64,000 nt of DNA from the NCBI GenBank assembly GCA_964427455.1, contig CAYRUY010000001.1, forward strand, positions 87,726 to 151,725. The letters are read 5' to 3'. This document shows, piece by piece, positions 11,379 to 26,716 of the stretch. The translations under genes and the position numbers were made by a program. Positions within the stretch are counted from its first letter, which is position 1. Each line of letters starts with the position of its first letter. This DNA comes from an uncultured Candidatus Bathyarchaeia archaeon. Lineage in GTDB: Archaea; Thermoproteota; CALKCG01; B24; JAWCPE01. The notes below the pieces were generated by a model. It was not told where the DNA came from. It made no database searches and saw nothing but the letters and a program-made list of their open reading frames with translations.

Positions 11379-11388
11379 CTTAAAAAAC
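11379..11388 (+). promoter_or_regulatory. putative TATA/BRE box for the BMP transporter operon
   Basis: ttaaaaaa lies about 33-40 nt upstream of the ATG at 11420. Inverted repeats occur further upstream (11244-11276, 11321-11338). Confidence 0.3.
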
Positions 11389-11419
11389 AGGGAGGATGAG
11401 ATGAGAGGCGGTTGATTCC

Positions 11420-12580
11420 ATGGCGAGGACAACATCGGCAATGGTTGCGTTCTTGCTCATAGGTGTGCTAGTGGGCGTCGCTGTAGGGTGGGTTGCCAAA
11501 CCGATTCCGCCTCCTGGCCCAGACTATATTCAGAGGACTGAGTACGACAAGGTGAGATCCGACTACGACAAGCTGAGGGCCGATTACGACCATACCTTAG
11601 CCCAGCTCGCGAAGCTGAAGAAGCCGGTGAAGATCGGTCTCGTAATGGCCACGGGCGGCCTAGGAGACAAGTCGTTCAACGACATCTCGTACGCGGGGGT
11701 CGTGCAGGCGAAGGAAGAGCTTGGCATAGAGTTCAGCTACGTGGAGCCCAAGGCCATAGCCGAGTACGAGGGCTTCCAGAGAGACTTCGCTAAGACCGGC
11801 GAGTACGCGCTGATCATCTGCATTGGCTTCGACCAAGCGGATGCTCTTACGAAAGTCGCCGGGGAGTACCCTAACCAGAGATTCGCAATCGTCGACATGG
11901 TCGTTGACAAGCCTAACGTGGCTTCCCTGCTCTTCAAAGCGAATGAGGGCTCCTTCCTTGTCGGCGTCATCAGCGCTATGACGACGAAGACGGGAAAGGT
12001 CGGCTTCGTAGGAGGCATGGACATTCCGCTCATCAGGGACTTCTTCATGGGATATGAAGCCGGCGCGAAGTGGGCGAGGAGCGATGTGACTGTGCTCTCA
12101 CCCGTCTTTGTAGGCGAATGGGCGAATCCAACGAAGGGGAAGGAGCTCGCTGTCTCACTAGTAGAGCTTGGAGCAGACGCCATCTACGTCGCGGCGGGAA
12201 AGAGCGGCCTAGGTGCGCTGGAGGCCGCCAATGAGAGGAACATCACGGCTTTCGGCGTTGACGCATGTCAAGACTACCTGAACCCGGCGATTCTAGCGAG
12301 CATGACGAAAAGGGTTGACCGCGCCGTCTTCGAGATGATCGTGGCCGCAACGTTTGATGAGGTCTATGGCATCTGGCATGCCTTCTTCAAGGGCGGATTC
12401 ATCGAGGGAGGCGTCAAAGAGGGATGGACAGGCTGCTGCAGGCTACCACAGGAGCAAGCTTTCTGGGAGGCCAAGTTCAACTTCACGCATACGGCGCTTC
12501 CAGCAAACGTCGTCACGAAGCTCAATGAGGCAAGAGCCGGAATCATTTCAGGAGAGATACAGGTACCACGACCATACTGA
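11420..12580 (+). CDS. BMP-family (PnrA/TmpC-like) ABC transporter substrate-binding protein, membrane-anchored
   Basis: GLVMATGGLGDKSFNDISYAGV and FVGGMDIPLIRDFFMGYEAG match PF02608. N-terminal TM anchor. Confidence 0.85.
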   Translation: MARTTSAMVAFLLIGVLVGVAVGWVAKPIPPPGPDYIQRTEYDKVRSDYDKLRADYDHTLAQLAKLKKPVKIGLVMATGGLGDKSFNDISYAGVVQAKEELGIEFSYVEPKAIAEYEGFQRDFAKTGEYALIICIGFDQADALTKVAGEYPNQRFAIVDMVVDKPNVASLLFKANEGSFLVGVISAMTTKTGKVGFVGGMDIPLIRDFFMGYEAGAKWARSDVTVLSPVFVGEWANPTKGKELAVSLVELGADAIYVAAGKSGLGALEAANERNITAFGVDACQDYLNPAILASMTKRVDRAVFEMIVAATFDEVYGIWHAFFKGGFIEGGVKEGWTGCCRLPQEQAFWEAKFNFTHTALPANVVTKLNEARAGIISGEIQVPRPY

Positions 12581-12589
12581 TGGGCCTAG

Positions 12590-14146
12590 GTGAGCTTTAA
12601 ATCCAATATCACCCCCCCTTTTTCCACCATGCCTCTGGCAGTGGAAATGAGGCAGATCACCAAGAGCTTCCCCGGCGTACTCGCAAACGACAGCATAGAT
12701 ATCGCCGTTGAAAAGGGAGAGATACACAGCCTACTCGGCGAGAACGGCGCCGGGAAAACGGTTCTGATGAGCATTCTCTACGGGCTCTACAGGCCCGACA
12801 GTGGCCAGATCCTCGTAAACGGGGAAGAAGCCGATGTAGACAGCCCAGCTAAAGCGATAAGGCTGGGCATAGGCATGGTTCACCAGCATTTCATGCTCAT
12901 ACCCAGCTTCACCGTCGCAGAGAACATAGTCTTAGGCAGAGAACTCACAAAGAACAAGATCCTCCTAGACAAGAAGAAGACACTAGGATACGCAGGGAAG
13001 TTCTGTGACCAGTACAAGATGAAAGTCGACTTGAGCGCGCCGGTCCACACCCTTCCCGTTGGCGTACAACAAAGGGTGGAGATTCTGAAGGCTCTGTACA
13101 GAGGAGCCAACATACTCATCCTCGACGAGCCGACATCCGTTCTCACACCCCAGGAAGTAGACGAACTCTTCAAAGCCATCAGAGCCCTCAAAGAACAGGG
13201 AAAGACGGTCATATTCATCTCGCACAAGCTGAAAGAGGTCATGGAGATCAGCGACAGAGTCACCGTCCTGAGAAGAGGAAGGGTAGTCGGCACAGTCAGG
13301 AAAGAGGAAAGCGATGCAGCCGAACTTGCCGAAATGATGGTAGGAAGACAGGTCTCCCTCACAACCGACAAGAAGAACGCTCAACTGGGGGACATTGTAC
13401 TCAGAGTGGAAGACGTAAAGGCCATGAATGACAGGAAGCTGCCTGCACTCAAAGGAGTAACCTTCGACATCCATGCACATGAGATACTCGGCGTAGCCGG
13501 AGTTGAAGGAAACGGACAGACCGAGCTTGTCGAGGTCCTAACAGGACTAAGGAAGGCCGTAGAAGGGAAGATCCTGCTGGAAGGACAGGAGATAACAGGC
13601 GAGCCTCCTAGCAAGAGGATCGAACTCGGGATCTCCCATGTTCCAGAGGACAGGCAGAGAACCGGTCTAATCCTAGACTTCTCGTTGAAGGAGAACCTGA
13701 TCCTCGGGGACCACAGGAACGAACCCTTCGCAAAGAACGGGATCGTCCTCGACCTCGAGGAGATCTCAAGCCATGCGGAGAAGTTGGTCGACGACTACTC
13801 GATAAGGACGCCAAGCACGGATGCTCTCACCAGACACCTGTCTGGGGGAACACAGCAGAGAGTCATCCTCGCAAGAGAGTTCAACAGAAGACCGAAACTC
13901 GTGGTTGCATCGCAGCCGACCAGAGGCCTAGACATCGGAGCCACGGAATACGTGCGGAATAAACTCGTGGAGATGAGAGACAGCGGCTGCGCAGTCCTTC
14001 TCATCTCAGCCGACCTCGACGAGGTAAGGGCATTAAGCGACAGAATCGCAGTCATCTACGAAGGCAGGATCACCATCATAGATAACTCAAAGACCGTAAG
14101 CGAGCGCGAACTCGGCCTCCTGATGGCTGGTGGTAAGACTGGGTGA
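12590..14146 (+). CDS. ABC transporter ATP-binding protein, duplicated ATPase domains (nucleoside/sugar type)
   Basis: Two Walker A/signature/Walker B sets (GENGAGKT...LSGGTQQR). The true start is probably at MPLAVEM (about 12629). Confidence 0.85.
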   Translation: MSFKSNITPPFSTMPLAVEMRQITKSFPGVLANDSIDIAVEKGEIHSLLGENGAGKTVLMSILYGLYRPDSGQILVNGEEADVDSPAKAIRLGIGMVHQHFMLIPSFTVAENIVLGRELTKNKILLDKKKTLGYAGKFCDQYKMKVDLSAPVHTLPVGVQQRVEILKALYRGANILILDEPTSVLTPQEVDELFKAIRALKEQGKTVIFISHKLKEVMEISDRVTVLRRGRVVGTVRKEESDAAELAEMMVGRQVSLTTDKKNAQLGDIVLRVEDVKAMNDRKLPALKGVTFDIHAHEILGVAGVEGNGQTELVEVLTGLRKAVEGKILLEGQEITGEPPSKRIELGISHVPEDRQRTGLILDFSLKENLILGDHRNEPFAKNGIVLDLEEISSHAEKLVDDYSIRTPSTDALTRHLSGGTQQRVILAREFNRRPKLVVASQPTRGLDIGATEYVRNKLVEMRDSGCAVLLISADLDEVRALSDRIAVIYEGRITIIDNSKTVSERELGLLMAGGKTG

Positions 14147-15215
14147 GAAGGCTCATGAGTTAGACCTAAGAGCAGGGAAACAGGTTCTGCAAGGTTTGCT
14201 CGTAGGGATACTGCCCGAGCTAGTAGCCATCATGGTTGCGTTCGTTGTTGGGGCTGTACTGCTTTACGTGACAGGATACCACCCAGTAAGCGCCTACGCG
14301 GCGATGGTCCAAGGCGCCTTCGGCGACATCTTCGGGATCGGCCAAACCCTCACGCAAGCAACACCGATCATCTTCACCGGTCTCTCCTTCCTACTTGCTT
14401 CCAGAGGCGGGCTCTTCAACATAGGGGCTGAAGGCCAACTCCTGGTCGGGGGTTTCTCAGCTGCACTCGTCGGGATATCCTTTCCGGGACTACCATCCGT
14501 AATCCATCTGCCCATAGCCATACTCGCTGCAGCTGCTGCAGGAGGTCTGTGGGGGTTCATCCCGGCGGCCCTCAAGGCGAAGCTCGGAGCTCACGAAGTC
14601 ATAACAACCATGATGCTAAGCTACGTGGCCTCGTATCTCACGAGCTACATGGCAAACTACCCGTACAAGGCGCCGGGATGGGTGGCGCAGACAGTTCCGG
14701 TCGCTCTCTCGGCACAGTTGCCCAGCATCCTTCCTCCAACGCAGCTATCAGCCTCACTCTTCCTCGCACTGCTTATGGCCGGTCTGACCTACTACATGTT
14801 CGACAAGACCACGCTGGGCTACGAGATTAGGGCTGTGGGCCTCAACCCGCGGGCGGCAGAAAGCGGCGGAATAAGCGTAACAAGAAACATCCTTCTAGCG
14901 TTAGTCCTAAGCGGCGCCCTAGCAGGCATCGGCGGAGCAGGGGAGGTCCTCGGCGTCCACAAACGCTACATAGATGGCTTCTCCCCAGGATACGGGTGGG
15001 ACGGAATCGCAGTAGCCCTCGTCGGCAGGCTTAACCCGGTAGGTGTCATCTTCGCCGCCGTCCTGTTCGGAGCCCTCAGAAGCGGAGGCATGGTGATGAC
15101 AAGAGTCGTCGGGGTTCCCCTGGACATAGTGATGATGCTCCAAGCCCTCGTGATCCTCTTCGTCGCAGCACCCATGCTCATTCAAGGCCTTCTCAGGAGG
15201 CGTCAGCATGGTTGA
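14130..15215 (+). CDS. ABC transporter permease (BMP-family system)
   Basis: Multi-TM, follows the ATPase with a 17-nt overlap. Confidence 0.8.
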   Translation: MVRLGEKAHELDLRAGKQVLQGLLVGILPELVAIMVAFVVGAVLLYVTGYHPVSAYAAMVQGAFGDIFGIGQTLTQATPIIFTGLSFLLASRGGLFNIGAEGQLLVGGFSAALVGISFPGLPSVIHLPIAILAAAAAGGLWGFIPAALKAKLGAHEVITTMMLSYVASYLTSYMANYPYKAPGWVAQTVPVALSAQLPSILPPTQLSASLFLALLMAGLTYYMFDKTTLGYEIRAVGLNPRAAESGGISVTRNILLALVLSGALAGIGGAGEVLGVHKRYIDGFSPGYGWDGIAVALVGRLNPVGVIFAAVLFGALRSGGMVMTRVVGVPLDIVMMLQALVILFVAAPMLIQGLLRRRQHG

Positions 15216-16431
15216 ACTCATTGACGTGATCAATATAGGACTCTTCGCAGCAGCGCTTCGAATGGCGACCCCGATAGCGCTAGCATCACTTGGAGGAATC
15301 TTCTCAGAGAGAGCAGGCATAACGAATATCGGCCTCGAAGGCATGATGCTGATGGGAGCTTTCTCCGGCGTAGCCATCAGCTTCTTCACGGGAGACCCCT
15401 GGCTCGGCGTCATAGCAGCAGTGCTTGTCGGGGCCCTGCTCGGCCTCCTCCACGCCGTACTCGTGGTCAGATTCGTCGGAAACCAGATCGTGAGTGGGGT
15501 CGGCATCAACATCCTCGCCATGGGCTTTACTGCATTCATGTCGCAGGTCTTCTGGGGCTCCAGAGGGGCCTCCGAGAGCGTCCAAGGCCTAAGGGAAGTA
15601 TCTATCCCACTCCTCAGAGACATCCCGCTGATCGGACCGGTAATCGGAACGCACACGCCCTTCGTCTACCTGATGCTGATCATAACCATCCTGTCACACG
15701 TCTTGCTCTTCAGGACACCCTTTGGGCTCAGGATAAGAGCTGTAGGCGAGCACCCTGCAGCAGCCGACTCAGCCGGCGTAAACGTCTTCAGGACCAAGTA
15801 CCTCTGCGTAGTGCTGAGCGGCATGCTCGCAGGCCTGGGCGGGGCATTCCTCTCCCTAGGCCACCTGAACCTGTTCGCTTGGGGGATGACGGGCGGCCGC
15901 GGTTTCATAGCCATGGCAGCCATGATCTTCGGCAAGTGGATGCCCTTCGGAGCCTTCTGGGCCAGCCTCCTCTTCGGCTTCTCAGACGCGCTGCAGATGA
16001 GGCTCCAGTCCCTAGGGCTCATGCCACCCCAGATCATACTGGCAATCCCCTACGTGCTCACAATAGCAGTGCTAGCTGGCGCCGTTGGTAGGGCGAATCC
16101 ACCGAGCGACTACAAACCCTACGTCAAGGAACGCCCGCGTCGTGCTAGACCTCGGCTAGTGCGGTTACCGCGGAGACTGCTGTCCTCTGTTAAGCGACTG
16201 CGGAGTACGACGCATATGGCTCCAGCTTTGGCGCCGCCTACCATTGCCAGCCTAAGGAGGCAACTCGCTTCTATCTCCTCTTCTCCAGCATCTCCTTCAC
16301 TACTCTCACACCCTCCTCCGACAACTCCCTTGCCTTCTCCGGGGAAGGCGAATCCACGTACACCCGCACTACAGGCTCAGTTCCCGAGAGCCGAATCAGC
16401 AACCACGAACCATCATCATAAACGTACTTAA
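15208..16431 (+). CDS. ABC transporter permease (BMP-family system), C-terminal tail questionable
   Basis: The permease core ends near VGRANPPSDYKPYVKE (about 16130). The ORF continues another 100 low-complexity Pro/Arg/Ser-rich codons into the convergent PGM gene. Confidence 0.7.
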   Translation: MVELIDVINIGLFAAALRMATPIALASLGGIFSERAGITNIGLEGMMLMGAFSGVAISFFTGDPWLGVIAAVLVGALLGLLHAVLVVRFVGNQIVSGVGINILAMGFTAFMSQVFWGSRGASESVQGLREVSIPLLRDIPLIGPVIGTHTPFVYLMLIITILSHVLLFRTPFGLRIRAVGEHPAAADSAGVNVFRTKYLCVVLSGMLAGLGGAFLSLGHLNLFAWGMTGGRGFIAMAAMIFGKWMPFGAFWASLLFGFSDALQMRLQSLGLMPPQIILAIPYVLTIAVLAGAVGRANPPSDYKPYVKERPRRARPRLVRLPRRLLSSVKRLRSTTHMAPALAPPTIASLRRQLASISSSPASPSLLSHPPPTTPLPSPGKANPRTPALQAQFPRAESATTNHHHKRT

Positions 16432-17626
16432 GACCATCAATCTCCACCAACCTTGTGTTCGGAGGCCTGAAACCTCCCTTCACCTTCTCCACGAGCGATG
16501 CCACCTTCTTAGGTTGGCCTCTCAGATTCCTTTTGACCTGGACATGCCTTGGAAACCCGGAGGCTATATCTGAAAGAACGCGTCGGGCCCTTGCTAGTAT
16601 GACGGCCATGAAGGCCGTCGCAATTATCCCGTCAGCCCAAGGCACTTTCGGGGGAAAGAAGTACTTGCCGGTCTCCTCGTAACCGAACCTCGCGTTATGG
16701 CGCTTTATCGCAAGCGAGATCTCCGGAGGCCCAATCCTACACTCCTCCACCCTACCCTTCCACACAGTCCTCATCAAGCCGGACGAGTTGACCGGCATCA
16801 CGCAGACGCCCGGGCCTGAATCGTACAGGTACCTTGCGAATATGGCCGCCGCGAGATCCTCAGAAAGCGGGGTACCCGTCTCGTCTACGAAGAGCACCCT
16901 ATCGCAATCAGCGTCATAGGCTGCGCCGAAATTAACCTTCCTCCACCGCACTAGCGCCCTCAGATCCTCAACGTTGTCTGCTCTGGGCTCCATAAGCCTC
17001 GGTGCGACGCCCGTTCGTTCGTCGTTTATGGCCACAGCGTCACACCCTAGGTCCATCAGCAGTCTTGAGATGACGCCAGCGCCAGTTCCGCCCGCAGGGT
17101 CCAAGGCTACGGACACGCCTTTGTCTAGAAGGCTGTCACCAACCATGATTCCTCGGACGAATCTTGTGTATGACGGCATCCAGGTTGGGTCTAATTCGGC
17201 CAGAGCGCCTCCCACATCAGTTCCAGGCGGCTCGATCTGGCCAGCTAGTTCCTCTATCTCCGCGGTCTTTTCACGTGACAGTATAGTGCCATCAGAATCT
17301 ACTGGGATGAGTCCGATGCGGTCGTAGGATAGGTGAGAGCCAGTGGCCATCAGCCCGCCTCGGAGCCCCCGCTCCGCGATCTGCTGAGAGAGTATCGGTG
17401 ATGGTATCACACCGAAGTTCTGAACCTGTACGTCTTCGGAGATCATCGCTGAGGCGCAGACGCCTGCCAGTTCCTCCGCCCCTGGCCTAGTATCATAACC
17501 AAGAGCCAACCTAGAGCCTTTACCGAAGAACCGTGCTAGGGCCTCCGAAGCCACATGGCAGAGCTGCGGCGTAACCTCTAGGTAGGTTAACCCCCTGATG
17601 CCTGCCGTGCCGAAACGCACGTTCAT
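16271..17626 (-). CDS. phosphoglucomutase/phosphomannomutase-family protein, likely phosphopentomutase
   Basis: MNVRFGTAGIRG start, GYDTRPG, active-site region ATGSHLSYD (Ser-His), four-domain length of 451 aa. It sits between the nucleoside ABC transporter and deoC, as archaeal phosphopentomutases do. Confidence 0.7.
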   Translation of the reverse strand: MNVRFGTAGIRGLTYLEVTPQLCHVASEALARFFGKGSRLALGYDTRPGAEELAGVCASAMISEDVQVQNFGVIPSPILSQQIAERGLRGGLMATGSHLSYDRIGLIPVDSDGTILSREKTAEIEELAGQIEPPGTDVGGALAELDPTWMPSYTRFVRGIMVGDSLLDKGVSVALDPAGGTGAGVISRLLMDLGCDAVAINDERTGVAPRLMEPRADNVEDLRALVRWRKVNFGAAYDADCDRVLFVDETGTPLSEDLAAAIFARYLYDSGPGVCVMPVNSSGLMRTVWKGRVEECRIGPPEISLAIKRHNARFGYEETGKYFFPPKVPWADGIIATAFMAVILARARRVLSDIASGFPRHVQVKRNLRGQPKKVASLVEKVKGGFRPPNTRLVEIDGLKYVYDDGSWLLIRLSGTEPVVRVYVDSPSPEKARELSEEGVRVVKEMLEKRR

Positions 17627-17638
17627 TCTTTCTTTATC

Positions 17639-18304
17639 CTATCCTAGGCGTGCGCCCTCAACTATCTGGATGCTCGCACTCGCGCCTATTCGGTTGGCGC
17701 CCGCCCTGATCAACTCCATGGCCGTCGCGTAATCCCTTATTCCACCAGCTGCCTTCACCCCAAGCCGTTCGCCTACCGTCTCCCGCATCAGCCTAACCGC
17801 CTGAACCGTCGCTCCCGACGGCCCGAAGCCTGTTGAGGTCTTCACAAAACCCGCGCCCGCCCTCTCCGCAACCTTGCAGGCCTCCACAATCCCGCTATCG
17901 TCAAGGTAGCATACCTCGATTATCACCTTTACAATCCTACCGTCTGCAGCCCGTACAACCCCCCTAATGTCCCTCTCAACGTAGCCTATGTCGGCATCAA
18001 GCAGCTTCCCTATGTTCATCACCATGTCTAACTCGTCCACTCCCTCTTCCACAGCAGTCTCTGTCTCCACGGCCTTCGACGCAGTACCTGTAGCCCCAAA
18101 CGGAAACCCTACCACAGAGCATGCCTTGACATCAGAACCAGAAAGCCTGGAGACACATCTTGCCACCCTTGAAGGGTTGACGCACACGGAGTAAAAGCCA
18201 TACTCCAAAGCCTCATCACAAAGCTTGTCCACTTGGCTGACTGTCGCATTCGGCTTCAGCAAGGTATGATCGATCATCTTCGCAAGGTCTTTAGGATCCA
18301 TCAA
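17639..18304 (-). CDS. deoC: deoxyribose-phosphate aldolase
   Basis: DeoC TIM-barrel over the full length. HTLLKP, SVCVNP and Schiff-base lysine context FVKTSTGF. Confidence 0.85.
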   Translation of the reverse strand: MMDPKDLAKMIDHTLLKPNATVSQVDKLCDEALEYGFYSVCVNPSRVARCVSRLSGSDVKACSVVGFPFGATGTASKAVETETAVEEGVDELDMVMNIGKLLDADIGYVERDIRGVVRAADGRIVKVIIEVCYLDDSGIVEACKVAERAGAGFVKTSTGFGPSGATVQAVRLMRETVGERLGVKAAGGIRDYATAMELIRAGANRIGASASIQIVEGARLG

Positions 18305-18518
18305 TTATCCCGCTTCTCAAGCTAAGTCGGCCTCTAGGCCATATATCAGCTTAGCGTCACAACCGAAGAGAAGCTCCCCGGCTTCTGGTAGCTTAAGGGC
18401 TTGCTAACACGCCCCCGGCATCTGGGAGCATCTGGAATGGGAGCGCCCGCTCTTCCTCGAAGTGGTCGACGGCGCCATGCTGAAGGTGGGTCAGACACGC
18501 TGGAGCTTCTAACTCTTT

Positions 18519-18968
18519 TTGCGCTGGCCTTGTCATAACCCTGGTGAGATACGGGATATGGCGTTGCAGGAAGAGGAAGCCCGGTTCAGTGGCAAATCGA
18601 TCCAGGAAAAACTGTTGGTATATACAGCCCAGTCTGTCAGGAACTTTGCCTATAGGATGCTCATATGCAAACATGTGTTGGATATGGGTTATGTCCCTTT
18701 AAATCCGTTCAATCTCTGGGGGGGGCATTACCTGTACGAGTTAGTGGATCGCGATGTTGTTAGGAATGCGAATAACAATCTCATAAGAAGGGTAGACGAA
18801 GTGTGGGTCTTCTGGGACATTTCCGACGGGGTTCTACCTGAGACAAATCTGGCAAAGGAGTCAGGTAAACCTGTTAGATACTTCAACATTGACGATCTCC
18901 CTAGATCCATTGTGGGAATCGAAGAGGACCAAGTTAGATACGAAGAGGGTGTTCATTGGCAAAGATGA
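18519..18968 (+). CDS. small protein, nucleoside 2-deoxyribosyltransferase-like fold (DUF4406/DNPH1-like?), low-GC island
   Basis: NP...VDEVWVFWDISDGVLPETNLAKESGKPVRYF follows the NDT-superfamily pattern. The region is visibly AT-richer than its flanks. Family call is tentative. Confidence 0.35.
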   Translation: MRWPCHNPGEIRDMALQEEEARFSGKSIQEKLLVYTAQSVRNFAYRMLICKHVLDMGYVPLNPFNLWGGHYLYELVDRDVVRNANNNLIRRVDEVWVFWDISDGVLPETNLAKESGKPVRYFNIDDLPRSIVGIEEDQVRYEEGVHWQR

Positions 18969-18994
18969 GCAGCCGTAAATAGTGGTGGACAACT

Positions 18995-19165
18995 GAGCCC
19001 ACCCGAGCTTGTTCGTATCTCCGCCTAGGGTTCTGTCTTCGGGCCCGCGACCATGTGAAAGTGCTCGCATACTTAAGCCTGTCCTCAACTGGCCTAGCTA
19101 GTTCATAACCTGACGCATGCCTGGGCATCGTCTGCTCGTTTGATAGTACGAACCTCTCAGGCTCC
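18995..19165. repeat. conserved intergenic element, copy R2 (paralogous to 11068-11240)
   Basis: Same conserved blocks as R1. The palindromic hairpin atgcc-tg-ggcat has a covarying loop relative to R1 (atgcc-ta-ggcat). No intact tRNA follows. Confidence 0.55.
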
Positions 19166-19259
19166 TAGGCTGCATGGTGATCCCTCACAAGGCTGTACGC
19201 GTCCAGGACCCGAGTGCTGAAGTTCCGCATCTAGAGCTTGATCTTCTGCGATTCCTACC

Positions 19260-20276
19260 TCACGATTGCTCCAGGGCCCCGTAGGCTTCTGAGAAGACCG
19301 GTATCCTCCTTCCGACCTCGGTTCCGTGTGAGTTCAGGACGGCGGGGTCACAGTACTTCCTCAGCTTCTCGAGCTCACCTTCTTCTAGGGCTCCGATCTT
19401 CCTGAGCGTCTCTATCGCTGCGATGCTCACAGCCTCGAAGTTTCCATCCTCGCACTTCACCGCCACTCCCAGTCCCTTCGAGAACAGGGCGATGGAGATG
19501 AGGCCTGCTGCGCCCGTCTTGGCTACCAGCTTTCTCCCAGAGTATCTCATCAAGTCTGTGTCGATAGCGCCGCTCGTAGGCGAGACCATCTCGGGATGAG
19601 CCCTCATCGCGTCCACGATCTTCCGTACTGCTAAGCGTCTTCTTCCATCGAGCGAGTCTTGGTCCGCGATCCTAGCGTAGATCCTGGCTATCGAGCTAAG
19701 CGGCAACCCGAAGGTGGGCACACCGCATCCGTCGACTCCAACCTTGATCCGGTCTTCTTCCATGTCTGAAAGCTCGGAGATGACCTTCAGGACACTCCTT
19801 TGAACATGATGGTCGGCTTGAAGGTAGCTTTCCACAGGCCAGCCCATCTGCTGCGAGTAGAGCAGCATCCCCGCATGTTGCCCCGAACAGCCATGCGTTA
19901 TGGCCTCTTCCCCCACAGGGCCTGTCTTGATCGCGGTCATCGGCAAGCCGATCTTGGACAGGATCCCTTTCACAGCTTCGACATGCACCCTCTCGCCTCC
20001 ATGTGAGCCTGTGATCACCGCCAACTCGGTCTCAGTCAGCTGGAACCGTTCGGTTGCCCCGCTCTCAGCAACGGGTATCGCCTGGATCGGTTTTCCAGAG
20101 GAGCGGAGATATAGGACGCGGTCCGTGTTCCCCGTAGAGCACACGAGGTTGCCGTAAGTGTCTGCGACGGCTACGGCTCCACGGTGGGTGTTCTCCACAA
20201 CCGACCCCCTCGTAACGTACACGAGTACGTCTTTGCTCAAGCGGCCGCCTCCAGGGTGTGATGCCCTTCGAGGCAC
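19260..20276 (-). CDS. L-asparaginase II family protein (Rhizobium-type, PF06089-like)
   Basis: N-terminal RGSVVENTHRGAVAV and overall length resemble the AnsA-type asparaginase II family. Tentative. Confidence 0.45.
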   Translation of the reverse strand: MPRRASHPGGGRLSKDVLVYVTRGSVVENTHRGAVAVADTYGNLVCSTGNTDRVLYLRSSGKPIQAIPVAESGATERFQLTETELAVITGSHGGERVHVEAVKGILSKIGLPMTAIKTGPVGEEAITHGCSGQHAGMLLYSQQMGWPVESYLQADHHVQRSVLKVISELSDMEEDRIKVGVDGCGVPTFGLPLSSIARIYARIADQDSLDGRRRLAVRKIVDAMRAHPEMVSPTSGAIDTDLMRYSGRKLVAKTGAAGLISIALFSKGLGVAVKCEDGNFEAVSIAAIETLRKIGALEEGELEKLRKYCDPAVLNSHGTEVGRRIPVFSEAYGALEQS

Positions 20277-20373
20277 TAGTCAGCGTCCATATAAGGCTTC
20301 GCGGGCTTGGTGGAGAAACAGGGCGCGAATGACGGGTGCGAGGTCCATATGTTAACTCTCTCTGCACAATCGG

Positions 20374-21447
20374 GTGAAGCTGCCCGGTTTGAGCCGAACA
20401 GATGAGCAGAGCCTAGGGCAGCGCTTAAATGCTCTCAGCCCGTTCCCTGTAACTGGGCTTCAGGATTTGATAGCGCCAGTGCTGAAAGACGCTCTGCTCT
20501 ACGCGAACCTCATCCTGATGTTGACGGTTGGCTTCACCTTGGCCTATCTGACGGCGAAGATACCGAACTTCTCTCACGGTACGCTTGCGGGTATAGGCGT
20601 CTACCTAGTCTTCTCCTTCACCAGGCTTTTCAAGCTGAACCCGTATCTAGCCATGCCGGTAGCCTTCCTCGTAGGCGGAGCAGTAGGCGTGTTCATCTAT
20701 CGCTTCGTCATCGGCACCCTGAGGAAACATGGGGCAACAGCCATCTCTCTCTCCATCGCAACGTTGGCTGTTGAGCTCATCGTTCTCGCAGTCCTGAACA
20801 TCTATGCAGACTATATCACGATTCTTTACGGTCATCTACCGATGATGTTTGCACGGATCTTCCTGCTTTCGGGGGTGGACTTTAAGTTCATGGACCTCCC
20901 CGGGGTCCTCATCGTATCAACGGCGATCATCGTGTTCCTAGTTGTGGGCCTACACCTGATGCTGACTAGGACAAGATTTGGCATCTCGATGAGGGCGACA
21001 GTCGAGGACCCGTCCCTTGCCTCCATTCTTGGCACGAATGTAGAGCTGGTCTCTACCATCTCGTGGCTCCTTACCGGTGGCTTGGCAGGCCTAGCGGGCG
21101 CTATGCTTCCGCTCTGGTTCCAAGGTGACCCCTACACGGGCGGCAGGATGATGACCAGTGTCTTCGCCGCCAGCGTACTAGGAGGCTTATCGAGCATCTA
21201 CGGCGCTATGCTAGGAGGCTATCTCATAGGCCTGATCGAGATCCTCGGAACTGCAGGCTTGGTCAGTGTCTTTGGCCTGTGGATCGCTTCCTACAGGATG
21301 CTGATACCGCTTGTGATCCTCTCTCTGGTCCTGCTTAAGGCCCCAGGAGGTATAGTTGGGCTCATCCAATCACTTCGGACTTGGATCTCGAGCAAAAGGG
21401 CAGCATCATCCCCCCAGCAAGGGAGGTCAGAGGCACGATTCCCCTAG
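20374..21447 (+). CDS. branched-chain amino acid ABC transporter permease (LivH-like)
   Basis: Multi-TM. VGFTLAYLTAKIPNFSHG fits the LivH N-terminal pattern. Confidence 0.7.
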   Translation: MKLPGLSRTDEQSLGQRLNALSPFPVTGLQDLIAPVLKDALLYANLILMLTVGFTLAYLTAKIPNFSHGTLAGIGVYLVFSFTRLFKLNPYLAMPVAFLVGGAVGVFIYRFVIGTLRKHGATAISLSIATLAVELIVLAVLNIYADYITILYGHLPMMFARIFLLSGVDFKFMDLPGVLIVSTAIIVFLVVGLHLMLTRTRFGISMRATVEDPSLASILGTNVELVSTISWLLTGGLAGLAGAMLPLWFQGDPYTGGRMMTSVFAASVLGGLSSIYGAMLGGYLIGLIEILGTAGLVSVFGLWIASYRMLIPLVILSLVLLKAPGGIVGLIQSLRTWISSKRAASSPQQGRSEARFP

Positions 21448-22601
21448 ATCTCTTAACGGGCTGGATCATAGACCTCTCAACCTTCTTCGCCCTTTACCTG
21501 ATAGTGGTCGTCGCCCTTAACCTGCAGTATGGATACGCGGGTATCCCCAATTTCGGGCTGGCCCTCTCGGTTGCAGGCGGGGCCTACGTAACGGGCGCTC
21601 TGACCGGGAGGATAGCCATGATGGTCTATGGTGTAGGAAAAGGATTGGATTTCATGCTTGACAACAACCAGATAACGGCCTCGCTCAACGCGATTTTAGT
21701 AAAAGACCCATGGGGTGGAGTAGCTATCTTCCTTCTCATCGTTCTGATAGCTGGTACGCTTAACGCTGGGCTAGGCTTCGTAGCATCCTATCCGGCCATC
21801 AGGCTGAAAGCCGAATACCTCATCATGGTGCTGATAGCCATGGCAGAAGGCATAAGGGTCATCGGAATAAACTACTACCCGCTCGTAGGCGGAACCTTCT
21901 GGGTTTCCGTGCCCGATCTCTTCGCCTGGATGGGCAGCATGAGGACCATCGGTTTAACGCTCATCATCTTCGCTTTCGCCATCGTCATGTTCCTTGTAGC
22001 CCAAGGCATGGCCACGTCGCCCTTCGGGAGGGTCATTAAGGCGATGCGAGACAACGAGGTTGCAGCAGAATGCGTAGGGAAGGATGTTGTGGGGCTGAAG
22101 ATCAGGATGATGGTTCTCGGCGCGGTGATAGCATCCATTGCCGGGGTGCTTAACGCCTTCCAGACCCAGGCTGTTCTCTCCTCCGCTTACACGAGGACGG
22201 ACTGGACTTTCTGGCCCTGGCTCATGCTCATGGTAGGAGGGAGAGCTAACAATATAGGCTCCGCCGTGGGCGCATCCACGGTCATCACGGCCAGAAGACT
22301 GATAGTATTCTTCAAACACGACCTCCAGCCATTCATTCCGTTCTCTGTCGTCTGGCTTGAGCAGATACTGCTCGGAACCTTCCTGATCATCGTGATGATG
22401 GTAAGGCCTCAAGGCCTGATACCGGAGAAGCCTACACGTATGAGAGGCTTCAAACCCACGAAGACTGCAGGGAGACTCGACAAGCTCCGCAAGCTCGCCA
22501 CGGGACTCCAGAGAGAACGTGGAAAGCAGGCTCCTGAAGCGCCGGCCGATACTGGCAGACCAACAGCCCCAGTGGCTTCACAGGAGAAGCTTTCTCGCTG
22601 A
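21381..22601 (+). CDS. branched-chain amino acid ABC transporter permease (LivM-like)
   Basis: LNLQYGYAGIPNFGLALSVAGGAYVTG fits LivM. The start is probably downstream of the called one. Confidence 0.7.
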   Translation: MDLEQKGSIIPPAREVRGTIPLDLLTGWIIDLSTFFALYLIVVVALNLQYGYAGIPNFGLALSVAGGAYVTGALTGRIAMMVYGVGKGLDFMLDNNQITASLNAILVKDPWGGVAIFLLIVLIAGTLNAGLGFVASYPAIRLKAEYLIMVLIAMAEGIRVIGINYYPLVGGTFWVSVPDLFAWMGSMRTIGLTLIIFAFAIVMFLVAQGMATSPFGRVIKAMRDNEVAAECVGKDVVGLKIRMMVLGAVIASIAGVLNAFQTQAVLSSAYTRTDWTFWPWLMLMVGGRANNIGSAVGASTVITARRLIVFFKHDLQPFIPFSVVWLEQILLGTFLIIVMMVRPQGLIPEKPTRMRGFKPTKTAGRLDKLRKLATGLQRERGKQAPEAPADTGRPTAPVASQEKLSR

Positions 22602-22713
22602 CTTCACAGAGACAGCCGCGCAAGGGTAGCCGGTGCCCTAGGTTTGGTTCAAGATGAAAAAGGGGGTTCGCCGCAGGGAGCCCCTTAATAGCCTAGTGGG
22701 GCTTCGCGGCTGC

Positions 22714-24027
22714 TTAGACCACTTTTATGTACCAGGTAACCTTCTCTGTGGTTGAGTCCCACATCCCTGATCTTCGCCAGACCACGGTGCCGTTCTCAAC
22801 CACCGTCGACCATAGTTCGAAGCTGCCGCCTGCCTTGTCACCGATATCGTTCAGCTTAGACCATCCAGCGGGCCCAAAGTACTGGTCAGCAACTGTCGGG
22901 ATAGCATTCTTTATCGCCTCGCCGTCGTACGTGCCTGCTTCGAGTACAGCCTTTGCTATCAGCCAGACGCCGTCGTAGATGAAGGCGGTGTAGGAGATCG
23001 GGATAAGTCCACCCGTCTGGTTCATGTAGTTCTGCGCGAAGGAGAACCACTTGCTTGACTCAGTCACACCTAGGACCATGGTGACGTACGTCATGTTCCC
23101 TGCGACATCTGGCAGCTCCTGTATGAGCCTTGTAGAGCGTCCGTAGCCGTCAGAGCCGAACCAGATGGCCTTCATCAGAATGGGGTAATCGGCGACCGCG
23201 CGGAAGATGACGACGTGCTCATCGAACATCCAAGCCGCCACGGCAACATGGCCTTCACCGTACTGCTGTGTAGCACTGGTCACCGCGTCTGCTAGAGCCC
23301 TTACCTCAGCTGAGAACTCTGTTTTCTCGCCGTCATACCTGATCCGATCAACCACCACGCCACCTCGTGCCTCAAAGTGCTTCTTGATGTACTCGTAGTT
23401 GCCGTCTCCCCACGCGTCTGCCCTCTGGACGACGACTATCGCCTTGATGCCGATCGCTGACATCACGCCGGACAATGCGATGTTCTGTGTGTCATCCGTC
23501 ACGGGCAACCTGAAGAGGTAACCCCTGTCCGGATAGGCCAGCAGAGGAGATGTAGAGCCGTCGCTGACAACCACGATCTTGTGCTCGTTGGCGTAGGGTA
23601 GGATGGCCTTGCACATGCCGCTCCAGTTAGGCCCGACGATGGCTTTGATGCCCCTTGCTGCCATGCCTTGGAACTTCTCAAGGGCGGTTGTGGGCGAAGT
23701 CTGGGCTTCCTCAGGGTACAGCTTAAACGTCACATTGAGCCCTATCTGCTTAGTGTAGCTGTTGACCTCCTCGATGGCTATCTCGGCGGGAACCATGGCA
23801 TCTCTTGTCGCTGAGCCCGCCAGGATGTAACCGATGGGTATCTCGCCGCTCAAGGCGGGCACAGGTACCTCAACGCGCTTTTCAACAGGCACTTCGACGC
23901 GTTTCTCGACCTCCTTGATCTTCTCCGGTGCCATCATGTAGCCTAGGCCATAGCCGACTGCAGATCCGACTATTAGGAGTGCTATCGCTAGCGCAATGGC
24001 TTTTGTTCCAATCTGTGACATCTGCAC
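22714..24027 (-). CDS. Liv-type periplasmic-binding-protein family substrate-binding protein, N-terminal TM anchor
   Basis: Type I PBP fold pattern (PF13458-like), anchored N-terminus. Lies within the Liv transporter locus. Confidence 0.65.
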   Translation of the reverse strand: MQMSQIGTKAIALAIALLIVGSAVGYGLGYMMAPEKIKEVEKRVEVPVEKRVEVPVPALSGEIPIGYILAGSATRDAMVPAEIAIEEVNSYTKQIGLNVTFKLYPEEAQTSPTTALEKFQGMAARGIKAIVGPNWSGMCKAILPYANEHKIVVVSDGSTSPLLAYPDRGYLFRLPVTDDTQNIALSGVMSAIGIKAIVVVQRADAWGDGNYEYIKKHFEARGGVVVDRIRYDGEKTEFSAEVRALADAVTSATQQYGEGHVAVAAWMFDEHVVIFRAVADYPILMKAIWFGSDGYGRSTRLIQELPDVAGNMTYVTMVLGVTESSKWFSFAQNYMNQTGGLIPISYTAFIYDGVWLIAKAVLEAGTYDGEAIKNAIPTVADQYFGPAGWSKLNDIGDKAGGSFELWSTVVENGTVVWRRSGMWDSTTEKVTWYIKVV

Positions 24028-24126
24028 ACCTTTAAAACAATGGCTCAGCTGTCTGAAAATAAAAGCCTTTCGCTTTCTTGTCTAAAACGTCCGTGTACAC
24101 GTGCACAATAGAAAAGTTTATGCGTT

Positions 24127-24918
24127 ATGACATTGACCTCAGAGGCGGAGAGGGTGGCGCTGGAGACAGTCCTCACTGTCAAGGAGCTCACGAAGAGCTT
24201 CGGAAGCCTGAAGGCTGTGGACAACGTGTCTTTGGAGTTGCCGAAGGGTAAGATCGCGTTGTTGATGGGGCCGAACGGGAGCGGAAAGACAACGTTGCTC
24301 AACTGCATCTCGGGCGTCTACAAGCCCGATGGTGGCCAGGTGATCTATAAGGGAACAGACATAACGGGAAAGCCTCCTCACGAGATCGCAGACATGGGCT
24401 GCGTGAGGACGTTCCAGATCCCACTGCCATTCCTGTCGTTGACAGTCTTGGAGAACCTGCTTGTCAGCCACAGGGGGAACCCAGGCGAAGGTATCGCTCG
24501 TTGCCTACTCAAAGGAACGTGGTTTGACGAAGAGAAGGACGCCGTTGAGAACGCGTCCAGGGTCCTCAAACTGCTCGTGCTCGAACACCTTGGCGATTCC
24601 CCGGCTAGCTCCCTGAGCGGCGGGCAGCTGAAGCTGTTGGAGGTTGGGAGGGCCTTGATGACAGAGGCTGAGACGATCCTCATGGACGAGCCTGCAGGCA
24701 GTGTGAACCCCATGCTTGCTCACGAGATCTTCAGCCATATCAAAGGGCTTAGGGACAGGCTGGGCCTAAGCTTCCTCATAGTTGAGCACAGACTAGATAT
24801 CGCCACGGAATACATTGATGAGATCTGCGCCATGGCTAATGGCAGGGTCCTATGCAGGGGCCTGCCACATGAGGTCTTCAGCCATCCCGAAGTGATCGAG
24901 TCCTACCTTGGTGAGTAA
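24127..24918 (+). CDS. ABC transporter ATP-binding protein (LivG-like)
   Basis: GPNGSGKTTLLNCISG, LSGGQLKLLEVGRAL, ILMDEPAG. Confidence 0.8.
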   Translation: MTLTSEAERVALETVLTVKELTKSFGSLKAVDNVSLELPKGKIALLMGPNGSGKTTLLNCISGVYKPDGGQVIYKGTDITGKPPHEIADMGCVRTFQIPLPFLSLTVLENLLVSHRGNPGEGIARCLLKGTWFDEEKDAVENASRVLKLLVLEHLGDSPASSLSGGQLKLLEVGRALMTEAETILMDEPAGSVNPMLAHEIFSHIKGLRDRLGLSFLIVEHRLDIATEYIDEICAMANGRVLCRGLPHEVFSHPEVIESYLGE

Positions 24919-25627
24919 TTTGATCGAGGTCGTCAAGCTAAACGCGGGCTATGGAAAGATCCCCGTGCTGTACGACGTCTCCTTCTCAGCTGGAGACAAG
25001 GAGATCACGGTTGTGGTGGGACCCAACGGGAGCGGCAAGTCAACGCTCCTGAAGTCCGTAATGGGCTTGACGACCACGTACTCCGGAACGGTGAAGCTAG
25101 ACGGTGAGGATATCACGAAGCTGCGCCCGGACCAAAGGGCGAAGCGAGGAGTAGCCTATCTTCCGCAGCTCGGCAGCGTATTCACCGCTCTCTCCGTGTC
25201 GGAAAACTTGACCATGGCAGGCCTGACGCTTGGCAAGAAGGAAGCAGGCGAGAGAGCAACCGCCGCTTTAGAGACCTTCCCTATCCTGAAGGGGTACACA
25301 AACAGGAAGGCTATTACGCTCAGCGGCGGCGAGAGACAGATGCTCGCCATGGCAATGGCTCTCATAATGAGGCCTAAGGTGATTCTGTTCGATGAGCCGA
25401 CTGGGAACCTCTCACCTAAGCTGGCGACTGAGATATTCAGCAAGATCGTGGAGCTTCGTGATTCCCTCGGCTTAGGGATAATCCTCGTTGAGCAGAGCGC
25501 TAAGAAGGCCCTAGAGATAGGGGATAGAGCATATCTACTTGTGACGGGAAAGACGGCGTTTGAGGGAAAGGCCGCAGACCTACTCAGCCACCCGGAGCTT
25601 GGCAAGATCTACTTGGGAGTTAGGTAG
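24908..25627 (+). CDS. ABC transporter ATP-binding protein (LivF-like)
   Basis: GPNGSGKSTLLKSVMG, LSGGERQMLAMAMAL, ILFDEPTGNLSP. Confidence 0.8.
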   Translation: MVSNLIEVVKLNAGYGKIPVLYDVSFSAGDKEITVVVGPNGSGKSTLLKSVMGLTTTYSGTVKLDGEDITKLRPDQRAKRGVAYLPQLGSVFTALSVSENLTMAGLTLGKKEAGERATAALETFPILKGYTNRKAITLSGGERQMLAMAMALIMRPKVILFDEPTGNLSPKLATEIFSKIVELRDSLGLGIILVEQSAKKALEIGDRAYLLVTGKTAFEGKAADLLSHPELGKIYLGVR

Positions 25628-25749
25628 ACCCCACTCAAGAGGTCGAGAAGCCTTCATTCGTAATCAGGACACCGGGTCCACGGTTCTCCATCACTGCCTT
25701 GCCCCGAATGCATATGTACTAGTGAGCATCCCATCTGCTGCCACAGCGG

Positions 25750-26697
25750 GTGTGCATCTTGAAGGCTTCCATCATGGCCACATGGCCCTTCGGGGAGAAA
25801 GCCGCCTCGGTCGGCATGGCAGTGCTGAAAAGGGGCGGGTCTGCCCTAGATGCTATTGAGGAATCCATCAAAGCCATAGAGGATGATCCAACCATCCTAG
25901 GGGTTGGACTCGGCGGTCTGCCAAACCTCGACGGCGTGTCTGAACTGGACGCCTCGATCATGGATGGCGGAACCCTTAGGGCGGGGGCCGTCGGCGGCCT
26001 AAGGAGCATCAGACATCCCATCTCGGTAGCCAGGAAGGTTATGGAGTTGACACCTCACATCCTCCTGATAGGGGAGGGAGCCCTCTCCTTCGCCAAGACC
26101 TGCGGCTTCAAGGAAGAGCAGGTCTGGAAACCGGATGCTCTGGAGCAATGGAAGCAGATCCGAGGGGTACTCGAGAAAGGCGACCTTACAGAGCTTGAGG
26201 AGATGGAGGAATATGCTAGGAGCATTTCCGCGCTCCTTCGCTCCAGGCCGAAGCTTGCGGGCACCGTCAGCGTCGTGGCCTTGGACAGGGAGGGAAGCAT
26301 GGTGGCGGGGAACTCCACGACGGGCCTAGCCCTGAAGCTGCCCGGGCGCGTAGGCGACTCAGCCATCGTGGGCGCCGGGATCTACGCCGACAACAGGGTA
26401 GGCGGCGCATCCACAACAGGGGTAGGTGAGATCGCGATCTCTCATCTTCTCTCGAAGAGAGTCTGTGACCTCATGAGGGAAGGCTCCAGCCCTGAGAAGG
26501 CGGCGTGGAAGGGGGTTGCTGAGACAATCTGGCCCGGAGGCTACCAGGGCTCCATATGCGTTATGGCGCTCGACAGGAATGGCAACTACGGCGCGGCCAC
26601 CTCGAGCAAGAGAGGTTTCCCATACGCCTACTTCAGCGAGGATATGGAAGAGCCACAGATGCTGGAGGCGCCTATCGTCGCAGGGAAGACGCCTTAG
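25750..26697 (+). CDS. isoaspartyl peptidase / L-asparaginase (Ntn-hydrolase, plant-type)
   Basis: GTVSVVALD...GNSTTGLALKLPGRVGDSAIVGAGIYAD contains the autoproteolytic Thr and the GRVGDS motif. Confidence 0.8.
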   Translation: MCILKASIMATWPFGEKAASVGMAVLKRGGSALDAIEESIKAIEDDPTILGVGLGGLPNLDGVSELDASIMDGGTLRAGAVGGLRSIRHPISVARKVMELTPHILLIGEGALSFAKTCGFKEEQVWKPDALEQWKQIRGVLEKGDLTELEEMEEYARSISALLRSRPKLAGTVSVVALDREGSMVAGNSTTGLALKLPGRVGDSAIVGAGIYADNRVGGASTTGVGEIAISHLLSKRVCDLMREGSSPEKAAWKGVAETIWPGGYQGSICVMALDRNGNYGAATSSKRGFPYAYFSEDMEEPQMLEAPIVAGKTP

Positions 26698-26716
26698 ACA
26701 GACGTCGTCGCATGCC

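Follow-up and report, generated by a model that had tools for sequence, protein, structure and literature searches.

The window analysed here is a stretch of 64,000 nucleotides of archaeal DNA, in which an AT-rich island carries a gene of the DUF7768 family with a predicted fold of the nucleoside 2'-deoxyribosyltransferase (NDT) superfamily. The gene (18558–18968, plus strand, 136 aa) was assigned from its open reading frame, a match to PF24963, its homologues, and an AF2 model. Directly adjoining it in divergent orientation is deoC (17639–18304, minus strand), which encodes deoxyribose-phosphate aldolase (TIGR00126, 257 bits against a cutoff of 117; PF01791) and for which an exact-sequence look-up of the protein found no record. 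The next gene on the minus strand (16271–17626), which we read as co-transcribed with deoC, encodes a PGM/PMM-family mutase with four PGM_PMM domains that scores under the GlmM cutoffs and is probably a phosphopentomutase; an archaeal phosphopentomutase of this family has been described (PMC11641776). Directly past the mutase stop codon lies a relic of a nucleoside phosphorylase gene (PNP_UDP_1; 16182–16277, minus strand), whose 32 codons correspond to residues 201–232 of the 257-aa protein at a related locus, L091 (tblastn E 4e-8, with 56% of 32 aa identical). A Bmp/PnrA-type ABC transporter (11420–16431, plus strand; Pfam Bmp, ABC_tran, and BPD_transp_2) converges on the mutase gene and is made up of a binding protein (11420–12580), an ATPase (12590–14146), and two permeases (14130–15215 and 15208–16431). 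The whole nucleoside cluster is bracketed by two directly oriented copies, ~77% identical, of a non-coding repeat, R2: copy A (11061–11224) upstream of the transporter and copy B (18986–19149) directly downstream of the DUF7768 gene. These coordinates place the gene between deoC and an R2 copy, as the original prediction had it.

That prediction had also described a 149-aa protein. The corresponding reading frame is real (18519–18968, plus strand, starting at a TTG) and carries the quoted NP, VWVFWD, and ESGKPV motifs, but its best reading is 136 aa. The likely start is ATG 18558, which agrees with the N-termini of the homologues and has a putative Shine-Dalgarno-like GGTGA 10 nt before it (18543–18547, plus strand). 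Two TTG codons on the same strand, at 18519 and 18564, are alternative starts in the open reading frame, the former being destroyed in the near-identical contig L088. Comparison with the orthologue at locus L002 gave a pN of 0.145 with pS saturated, indicating purifying selection on the gene. The island is one real, intact gene.

In 300-nt windows, GC content between 18500 and 19000 is 0.447–0.467, against 0.55–0.61 on either flank. When the 64 kb is scanned in 411-nt windows (mean GC 0.581, sd 0.029), the one holding the gene is the minimum (0.455–0.460, z −4.2); only 0.05% of them reach so low a value, and the lowest distinct one after it has a GC of 0.501. The DUF7768 gene is likewise the lowest-GC gene of the window (0.46 versus a 64-kb mean of 0.58), with a GC2 of 0.32 and a GC3 of 0.526 versus a gene mean of 0.688 (sd 0.059), so that the low-GC island of the original prediction was borne out. 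Across 76 loci, however, DUF7768 genes average 4.6 GC points under their flanks, and 8.1 points in hosts of more than 50% GC, so part of the dip reflects the amino-acid composition of the family. The GC3 deficit of the window gene (−15.6 points) is nonetheless strong even for this family (family mean −3.1, sd 7.7).

The protein matches PF24963 (DUF7768) with 28.4 bits in its 149-aa form and 28.7 bits in its 136-aa form, only just over the gathering cutoff of 26, which indicates that this cellular clade lies far from the sequences of the Pfam seed. Among the 73 homologues found, 67 have DUF7768 as a precomputed Pfam domain, and a rescan of alignment A2 returned the domain in all 69 members. The window protein also matches phrog_355, annotated as an NDT, with an E-value of 2.5e-9, as do four other members. 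PF05014 and DUF4406, two of the families that the original prediction had named for checking, gave no match at E ≤ 1; weak matches to PF05014 were seen in 19 of 69 relatives, the best with an E-value of 3e-4. No NCBIfam family was returned for the window protein, PADLOC 2.0 had no match for it or two homologues, and searches of PDB sequences with the protein and the family profile yielded chance matches only, with no NDT or DNPH1 chain among them. A literature search found no paper mentioning DUF7768.

The AF2 model of the window protein (pLDDT 87.7, pTM 0.81) predicts a flavodoxin-like three-layer α/β fold that has the secondary-structure order of NDTs and superposes best on NDT-family structures. 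In a Foldseek search against the PDB, the top 20 matches were all NDTs, with ThsB, BcmB/MilB, and DNPH1 ranking next; the TIR/ThsB NADase domains scored below the NDTs, and the window protein has no TIR match in Pfam or PADLOC. A fold search of BFVD returned phage NDTs and phage proteins named DUF7768. At the sequence level, hhalign comparisons with DNPH1 and NDTs proper were marginal overall (E 0.04–0.26 over 11–22 columns), and the family alignment matched a 16-sequence DNPH1 alignment over 22 columns with an E-value of 0.048 and a probability of 1%. From these results we regard DUF7768 as an uncharacterised branch of the NDT/DNPH1/MilB N-glycosidase superfamily; the proposed NDT/DNPH1-like nature thus stood as far as the superfamily fold is concerned, but not as membership of DNPH1 or PF05014.

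The branch differs from its characterised neighbours in several respects. Identity to the NDTs of PF05014 (L. leichmannii 1F8X, Chroococcidiopsis 8PQQ, and Bacillus 6EVS) is 14–19%, and relative to these enzymes the window family has an additional invariant NPF, R65, and R69, apparently an Asn where an Asp is expected, and NUDIX, HAD, and FAD-like domains as fusion partners. DNPH1/Rcl is an N-hydrolase of dNMPs and 5-hydroxymethyl-dUMP, and MilB/BcmB are CMP N-glycosidases, to which the sequence link of the window protein is not significant; the protein has YTAQS in place of the DNPH1 phosphate loop GSIRGG, and D80 of DNPH1 appears to correspond to Asn in DUF7768.

Across 69 sequences, the invariant or near-invariant positions are Y22, S26, P47-x-N49-P50, R65, R69, N72, D80, W83, G91, and E95. 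In the NDT superfamily the catalytic Glu nucleophile stands where the helix after the fourth strand begins, and the invariant E95 is its predicted counterpart: hhalign sets ISDGVLPE95 opposite PSLGVGYE104 of DNPH1, which ends in the DNPH1 nucleophile, in a match that is local only (E 0.26 and 0.048). The VPLNP segment falls opposite the β2 segment YVPLDN of LlNDT. The invariant N72, eight residues before the strand-initial D80, is by spacing the motif-level equivalent of LlNDT D72 and DNPH1 D80, as judged against the verified sequences of 1F8X and DNPH1, so that the Asp on helix 3 that contacts the sugar 3'-OH in NDT and DNPH1 would appear as an invariant Asn in DUF7768. Tyr22 and Asn72 would correspond in position to the Tyr and Asp, respectively, of NDT/DNPH1. 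The near-invariance of R65, R69, S26, and S89 suggests that the ligand bears a phosphate.

In four related loci of Thermoplasmatota (L089, L090, L091, and L094), an HD gene of the dGTPase family (TIGR01353, 186 bits against a cutoff of 152) is followed by genes for DeoC, the PGM mutase, and PNP_UDP_1, and in relatives the mutase gene always lies between those for DeoC and the nucleoside phosphorylase. The order of deoC and the mutase gene is the same in the window, with 57–64% identity between the mutases. In contrast, the window, L001/L088, and L002/L092/L093 have DUF7768 with DeoC and the mutase, and neither the HD gene nor the phosphorylase gene. DUF7768 thus occupies the HD slot in the window clade and is missing from the syntenic site in relatives, and in the window it runs divergently from deoC instead of in the same direction. 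No relics of the HD or phosphorylase gene were found within 18300–19300; both genes may be present in parts of the genome beyond the loci compared. The linkage to deoC is kept in a second species despite an inverted DUF7768 gene (the deoC proteins are 81% identical), and was seen in one clade only, at three loci among ~80 examined. Our literature search on an archaeal dNTPase–DeoC operon found nothing specific. The occupation of the HD slot and the linkage that survives inversion strengthen the functional tie to deoC and the salvage cluster that had been proposed.

The distribution of the family bears on how the gene reached this site. A scan of 185,579 species genomes with an 18-sequence alignment found 267 loci, in CPR, DPANN, Chlamydiae, Proteobacteria, and a few archaea, and family members are mostly solo genes in unrelated contexts. 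Outside the clade, the best matches are bacterial, with 54–58% identity, and the closest relatives fall in CPR bacteria and in other, unrelated taxa. A metagenome scan added one further contig only, L088, and a scan of IMG/VR with the family alignment, limited by its search patterns, found no relatives. The foreign origin put forward in the original prediction is plausible in view of this patchy distribution, the absence of the gene from the syntenic site in relatives, and its GC3 deficit; the gene was probably acquired horizontally, a direction of transfer that we infer.

The explanation that we favour, to which we give about an even chance, is that the DUF7768 gene, most likely gained by horizontal transfer, heads the deoC–phosphopentomutase operon and encodes an N-glycosidase that feeds DeoC. 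The newcomer would stand in for the dGTPase-family dNTP triphosphohydrolase of the relatives, while deletion has left only a relic of the operon's nucleoside phosphorylase. By chemistry like that of DNPH1 or MilB, the enzyme would cleave the N-glycosidic bond of a deoxynucleotide and release deoxyribose 5-phosphate (dR5P) straight to DeoC, so that one step would replace the route from dNTP through deoxynucleoside and dR1P to dR5P. Judged by its genomic setting, DUF7768 is a plausible new entry step to the deoxynucleotide breakdown pathway. The neighbouring Bmp/PnrA nucleoside-type transporter and the nucleotide-processing fusion partners and operonic neighbours that the family has elsewhere agree with this reading. 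A point counter to it is that a dR5P product would leave that branch with no need for the mutase, which is retained.

The same fold could instead serve a true nucleoside 2'-deoxyribosyltransferase or a nucleoside hydrolase that swaps or releases the bases of imported deoxynucleosides for salvage, with the adjacency of deoC and the Bmp transporter reflecting nucleoside use rather than dNMP cleavage. The best structural matches are NDTs, the phrog_355 annotation and the alignment of VPLNP with VPLDN in β2 of NDTs agree with them, a nucleoside-type ABC transporter adjoins the gene, and the family is enriched in the salvage-dependent CPR, DPANN, and Chlamydiae. We nevertheless consider this reading unlikely. 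A transferase frees no sugar for DeoC and therefore would not explain the replacement of the HD and phosphorylase genes; the putative phosphate-binding Arg and Ser residues and the apparent Asn in place of the sugar-binding Asp also argue against it, as do the fusions of DUF7768 to two nucleotide-handling domains, NUDIX (P0260 and P0313) and HAD (P0357).

Elsewhere, the genomic contexts of the family point in two directions. Operonic neighbours of DUF7768 include nucleotide-processing proteins, namely NUDIX, PNP, YfiH-type, and HAD proteins, and three of these neighbours across the 76 loci match PNP_UDP_1. Other loci contain three-gene operons in which a gene for a FAD-type oxidoreductase-like (FAD-like) protein and DUF7768 are followed by a TIR gene, as at L003 and L006/L049, or, as at L007, by the gene of an effector with a PNP domain; the C-termini of the third genes of L003, L006, and L007 match the PADLOC models for TIR/PDC-S35 and PN-superfamily effectors. 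By BLAST only, the same layout was seen at L061, where a fused FAD-like/DUF7768 reading frame precedes a PNP-like gene, and at L082, where the third gene is a weak match to a TIR query (E 1e-6). Among the best 150 cluster representatives, 31 are 539–609 aa long, and all three of those checked are FAD-like/DUF7768 fusions. These FAD-like/DUF7768/TIR-or-PNP modules and fusions may constitute a new system of defence or signalling; a literature search on NDT-like/FAD/TIR defence systems found nothing specific.

Much of the family is fused to or operonic with a FAD-type protein and TIR/PNP effectors, which points to a conflict role rather than a catabolic one. The window gene would then be a stand-alone copy of such a module, acting in nucleotide sensing or in making or destroying a signal with a FAD-type enzyme and TIR/PNP effectors, and its position at deoC would be an insertion accident at a recombination-prone spot. 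The PNP_UDP_1 neighbours fit this reading, as does the variability of the locus between strains: over 3.2 kb, all 12 differences between the window and L001 fall within 18576–19029, and a 12.6-kb strain-level indel relative to L001 begins at 19088, inside R2 copy B. So does the saturated pS against the L002 copy, unlike the pS of 0.41 for the flanking genes. However, no FAD-like or effector gene was found near the window gene, DUF7768 itself has no PADLOC match, its linkage to deoC is kept in two species, its presence coincides with the loss of exactly the two enzymes that it could replace, and the NUDIX and HAD fusions are equally compatible with metabolism. For the window gene, we consider a conflict role improbable.

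The window allele itself has two peculiarities. A G8 run with an in-frame GGG insertion (18715–18725, plus strand) gives NLWGGHY where the family has NLWGHY, in the window allele only, and codon 86 is TGG (18813–18815, plus strand), encoding Trp where more than 90% of the family has the Gly of the VWVFG motif; the 98%-identical alleles of L001 and L088 have this Gly as well. An additional Gly together with Trp at a near-invariant Gly means that the window allele may be impaired, to judge from its sequence, and the concentration in this gene of the differences from L001 could be taken as a sign that it is decaying in this strain, the AT-rich island being a leftover with no current function. Such decay is very unlikely, however, given an intact reading frame with the insertion in frame, three synonymous changes among the five point differences from L001 in the gene, an identical allele in both ENA and NCBI, and strong purifying selection in the clade.

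The route of acquisition can be narrowed further. The original prediction took the R2 copy as tRNA-flank-like and the island as inserted at, or replacing, a tRNA locus. R2 does not code for a small protein on the minus strand, as its differences are spread 6/10/8 over the codon positions and amino-acid identity would be ~44% against a nucleotide identity of 77%. Its two copies offer no usable covariation for a structured RNA, and nhmmer found no further copies in the fetched loci except a truncated one in L001 and L088. ARAGORN detected neither tRNA nor tmRNA genes across the 64 kb and no tRNA in nine related loci (L001, L002, and L088–L094), Rfam gave nothing at the gathering threshold in the whole window and nothing with an E-value of up to 1 around the two R2 copies, and the search for an integrase, for target-site repeats, and for direct or inverted repeats flanking the gene found none. 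With the syntenic slot of the relatives held by a dGTPase-family gene, a tRNA route, for which the compositional jump and the adjacent repeat alone would speak, can be dismissed as most improbable.

Returning to the N-glycosidase reading, we tentatively extend it to the family as a whole, a broader proposal that is rather less likely to hold in full: DUF7768 would be a new branch of the NDT superfamily that converts a deoxynucleotide to dR5P in one step and has displaced the two-enzyme front end, dNTP triphosphohydrolase plus nucleoside phosphorylase, of an archaeal operon for deoxynucleotide catabolism, and its bacterial forms fused or coupled to FAD-like, TIR, and PNP proteins would belong to an undescribed nucleotide-based conflict system. 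If the inference on the window gene is right, DUF7768 would gain its first assigned function, in a family of ~1,500 cluster representatives that is found above all in CPR, DPANN, and other microbes dependent on salvage. The same inference would imply a clean non-orthologous displacement within an archaeal deoxynucleotide-catabolic operon, and a case of DNPH1-like chemistry being used catabolically in prokaryotes.

The stretch from 18480 to 19000 is the compositional minimum of the window, with a GC content of 0.447–0.467 against 0.55–0.61 on either side (300-nt windows), confirming the AT-rich island of the original prediction. Among all 411-nt windows in the 64 kb, the one covering the gene is the lowest at 0.455–0.460 (z = -4.2; mean 0.581, SD 0.029), and the next lowest distinct one has a GC content of 0.501. 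The gene itself has a GC2 of 0.32 and a GC3 of 0.526, compared with 0.688 ± 0.059 for the ORFs of the window. Across 76 loci, genes of the family to which it belongs, Pfam DUF7768 (PF24963), average 4.6 GC points below their flanks and 8.1 points below them in GC-rich hosts, indicating that part of the island is intrinsic to the composition of the protein; the GC3 deficit of the window gene, -15.6 points, is at the strong end of the family. The predicted 149-aa ORF is present at 18519–18968 with a TTG start. However, the ATG at 18558, giving 136 aa, is the better start because GGTGA sits 10 nt upstream, the N-termini of homologues start at the same point, and the near-identical contig L088 has the TTG destroyed. 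Since the plus-strand product shows strong homology, the minus-strand ORFs overlapping the gene were rejected as spurious.

The protein scores above the Pfam DUF7768 cutoff (28.4 bits vs 26), and matches no NCBIfam model, PF05014 or DUF4406. Among 5.8 billion proteins searched, 73 homologues were identified; 67 of these have DUF7768 as a precomputed domain, and none bears a functional name. The family is small: an HMM scan of 1.84 billion cluster representatives yielded 1,521 proteins at E ≤ 1e-3, of which 125 reached E ≤ 1e-30, and we found no mention of it in the literature searched. Among the PHROGs profiles, phrog_355, annotated as nucleoside 2-deoxyribosyltransferase (NDT), was matched by the window protein (E 2.5e-9) and by four other DUF7768 members (E 1e-6 to 1e-11). 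An AlphaFold2 model built on an alignment of 69 homologues was confident (pLDDT 87.7, pTM 0.81). When this model was compared with the PDB by Foldseek, the first 20 places were all taken by NDTs (E about 1e-4, probability 1.0, TM 0.50–0.58), followed by ThsB, the CMP N-glycosidases BcmB/MilB, and DNPH1, while the fold matches in BFVD were phage NDTs and two phage proteins named DUF7768. These results make the assignment of the NDT-superfamily fold sound. Of the NDT/DNPH1-like protein first proposed, the fold therefore stands, whereas membership in DNPH1 or PF05014 proper is not supported; the protein adds a new member to a known superfamily and to a Pfam family that already exists but is uncharacterised. 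The ranking of NDTs in the fold search would also suit a genuine NDT or a nucleoside hydrolase, a reading that we consider rather unlikely.

The invariant or near-invariant residues of the family are Y22, A24, S26, V46-P47-x-N49-P50-F51, R65, R69, N72, D80-E81-x-W83-V-F-G86, G91-V92, and E95 (numbering of the 136-aa protein). Human DNPH1 and the NDT of L. leichmannii, their sequences checked against PDB chains, were compared with the family profile. Only short segments were paired by hhalign, each of them weak alone: ISDGVLPE95TNLAKESGKPVRYF with PSLGVGYE104LGRAVAFNKRILCL of DNPH1 (E 0.26 with the single sequence and 0.048 with a DNPH1 alignment), and VLDMGYVPLNP with DLENSYVPLDN of NDT (E 0.043). 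The order of the aligned segments is that of the predicted secondary structure and of the NDT catalytic elements. By sequence rather than by superposition, E95 is the probable nucleophile, Y22 would be equivalent to the tyrosine on β1, and S26, S89, R65, and R69 are candidate phosphate ligands. Judged by spacing, the invariant N72 would sit where the sugar-binding aspartate is located (D72 in NDT and D80 in DNPH1).

Upstream of the gene lie deoC (17639–18304, minus strand) and a PGM/PMM-family mutase gene (16271–17626, minus strand), the nearest named relatives of the latter (55–59% identity) being from Thermoplasmata and Thermoplasmatota MAGs. By this measure, an uncultured archaeon of that phylum would be the most likely source of the window. 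Four relatives (L089, L090, L091, and L094) have a mutase 57–64% identical to that of the window, encoded in a common operon with an HD protein, DeoC, and a PNP_UDP_1 nucleoside phosphorylase. The HD protein belongs to the dGTP triphosphohydrolase family (TIGR01353, 186 bits vs cutoff 152), and phosphopentomutase activity of a PGM-family enzyme has been documented in Thermococcus (PMC11641776). The four genes make a coherent route from dNTP through deoxynucleoside, dR1P, and dR5P to glyceraldehyde 3-phosphate and acetaldehyde. This operon of Thermoplasmatota MAGs looks like a dedicated dNTP/deoxynucleoside catabolic route; no description of it was found in the literature searched.

The window clade is without the HD gene, and the corresponding end of the operon is occupied by DUF7768. 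The deoC and mutase of the sister species (L002, L092, and L093) are 81% and 82% identical to those of the window; there, DUF7768, DeoC, and mutase are encoded in this order and co-directionally, with DUF7768 exactly in the HD slot. The window, like its strain-level relatives L001 and L088, has the DUF7768 gene inverted, so that it diverges from deoC. Of the phosphorylase, a relic of 32 codons (16277–16182, minus strand) is left immediately behind the stop codon of the mutase; it is 56% identical to residues 201–232 of the 257-residue phosphorylase of L091 (E 4e-8). It follows that the ancestor carried the four-gene operon, and that the window clade gained DUF7768 and lost the two enzymes of the front end. 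This replacement strengthens the predicted functional link to deoC, which is supported at the level of context. The operon adjoins a Bmp/PnrA-type ABC transporter (11420–16431); on the opposite strand, the relic overlaps the odd low-complexity C-terminal tail of a permease ORF (15208–16431).

DUF7768 is rare and patchy (267 loci among 185,579 species genomes), and the best matches outside the clade, at 54–58% identity, come from Patescibacteria, Spirochaetota, Bacteroidales, DPANN archaea, Chlamydiae, and Proteobacteria. Given this spread, the GC3 deficit, and the lack of the gene at the syntenic site of relatives, its horizontal acquisition is the most economical explanation. The suggested insertion at, or replacement of, a tRNA locus found no support, as neither the window nor any of the nine related loci contains a tRNA. 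Compared with its L002 copy, the gene has a pN of 0.145 and a saturated pS of 0.85 (pN 0.09 and pS 0.41 for deoC and mutase), with a GC3 of about 0.52 in the window and 0.68 in L002. The low pN and saturated pS indicate purifying selection, with silent sites far more diverged than those of the neighbours; this excess is compatible with the two species having acquired or replaced the gene separately, or with a strong change in its composition.

The window differs from L001 at 12 positions in 3,188 aligned bases, all inside 18576–19029, and the mutase and deoC sequences, 2.4 kb in all, show no difference. Those within the DUF7768 gene comprise two amino acid replacements (E7K and W86, the latter being Gly in the family and in L001/L088), three silent substitutions, and a GGG inserted in frame into a run of G; ENA and NCBI sources both carry the window's allele. 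Two independent assemblies, L001 (Logan) and L088 (JGI), 99.6–99.8% identical otherwise, join 19088 to about 31658 and thus lack a 12.6-kb segment (19089–31657) whose products include asparaginase II, a Liv-type ABC transporter, a second asparaginase, and a C69 peptidase. The left breakpoint falls within copy B of the repeat R2, and the right side adjoins the NucS gene, whose last roughly 20 codons, at this junction, are strongly diverged. The DUF7768 gene thus borders a recombination-active junction, and the clustered differences are probably a recombination tract beside it; alternatively, they may reflect relaxed constraint in the window strain. The two R2 copies (11061–11224 and 18986–19149), direct, non-coding, and about 77% identical, bracket the whole Bmp-transporter/mutase/deoC/DUF7768 cluster. 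R2 has no Rfam match; L001 and L088 carry it in truncated form, and no copy was found in the sister species or more distant relatives. A second repeat pair (10534–10606 and 61793–61865) is 73 nt long and 75% identical, and one of its copies shares a gene-poor stretch of roughly 1 kb (10400–11420) with R2 copy A.

Elsewhere, most DUF7768 members are solo genes in heterogeneous neighbourhoods. Operonic neighbours include NUDIX, PNP_UDP_1, YfiH-type (Cu-oxidase_4), and HAD proteins; fusions to NUDIX (P0260 and P0313) and HAD (P0357) occur, as does a tandem duplication (P0258). The association with NUDIX and HAD supports a nucleotide as the substrate. A frequent partner is a FAD/NAD(P)-Rossmann oxidoreductase-like protein of roughly 435 aa, fused or upstream in a bacterial three-gene module that ends with a large protein carrying a C-terminal effector domain. 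The first two proteins are often one fusion of about 570 aa; 31 of the 150 best cluster representatives measure 539–609 aa, and the fusion was confirmed for P0264 and P0266, with the domain order reversed in P0268. The effector domain of the third gene is of the CAP12/Pycsar TIR type (PDC-S35/PycTIR-like) in L003 (4687–7967) and L006/L049, and is a PNP domain matching CBASS-type effector models in L007 (4700–8469). Modules were also located in L063 (6567–9103) and, with the same layout by BLAST only, in L061 (6741–10155) and L082 (6679–10495). This candidate defence or signalling system is not among the systems of PADLOC 2.0, and the literature searched does not describe it.

These FAD/TIR/PNP modules point to a role in conflict systems for part of the family. 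That the window protein is itself such a module, placed near deoC by accident, is likewise rather unlikely in our view. We predict instead, with about even confidence, that it is an N-glycosidase releasing deoxyribose phosphate for DeoC, a reading that is directly testable.
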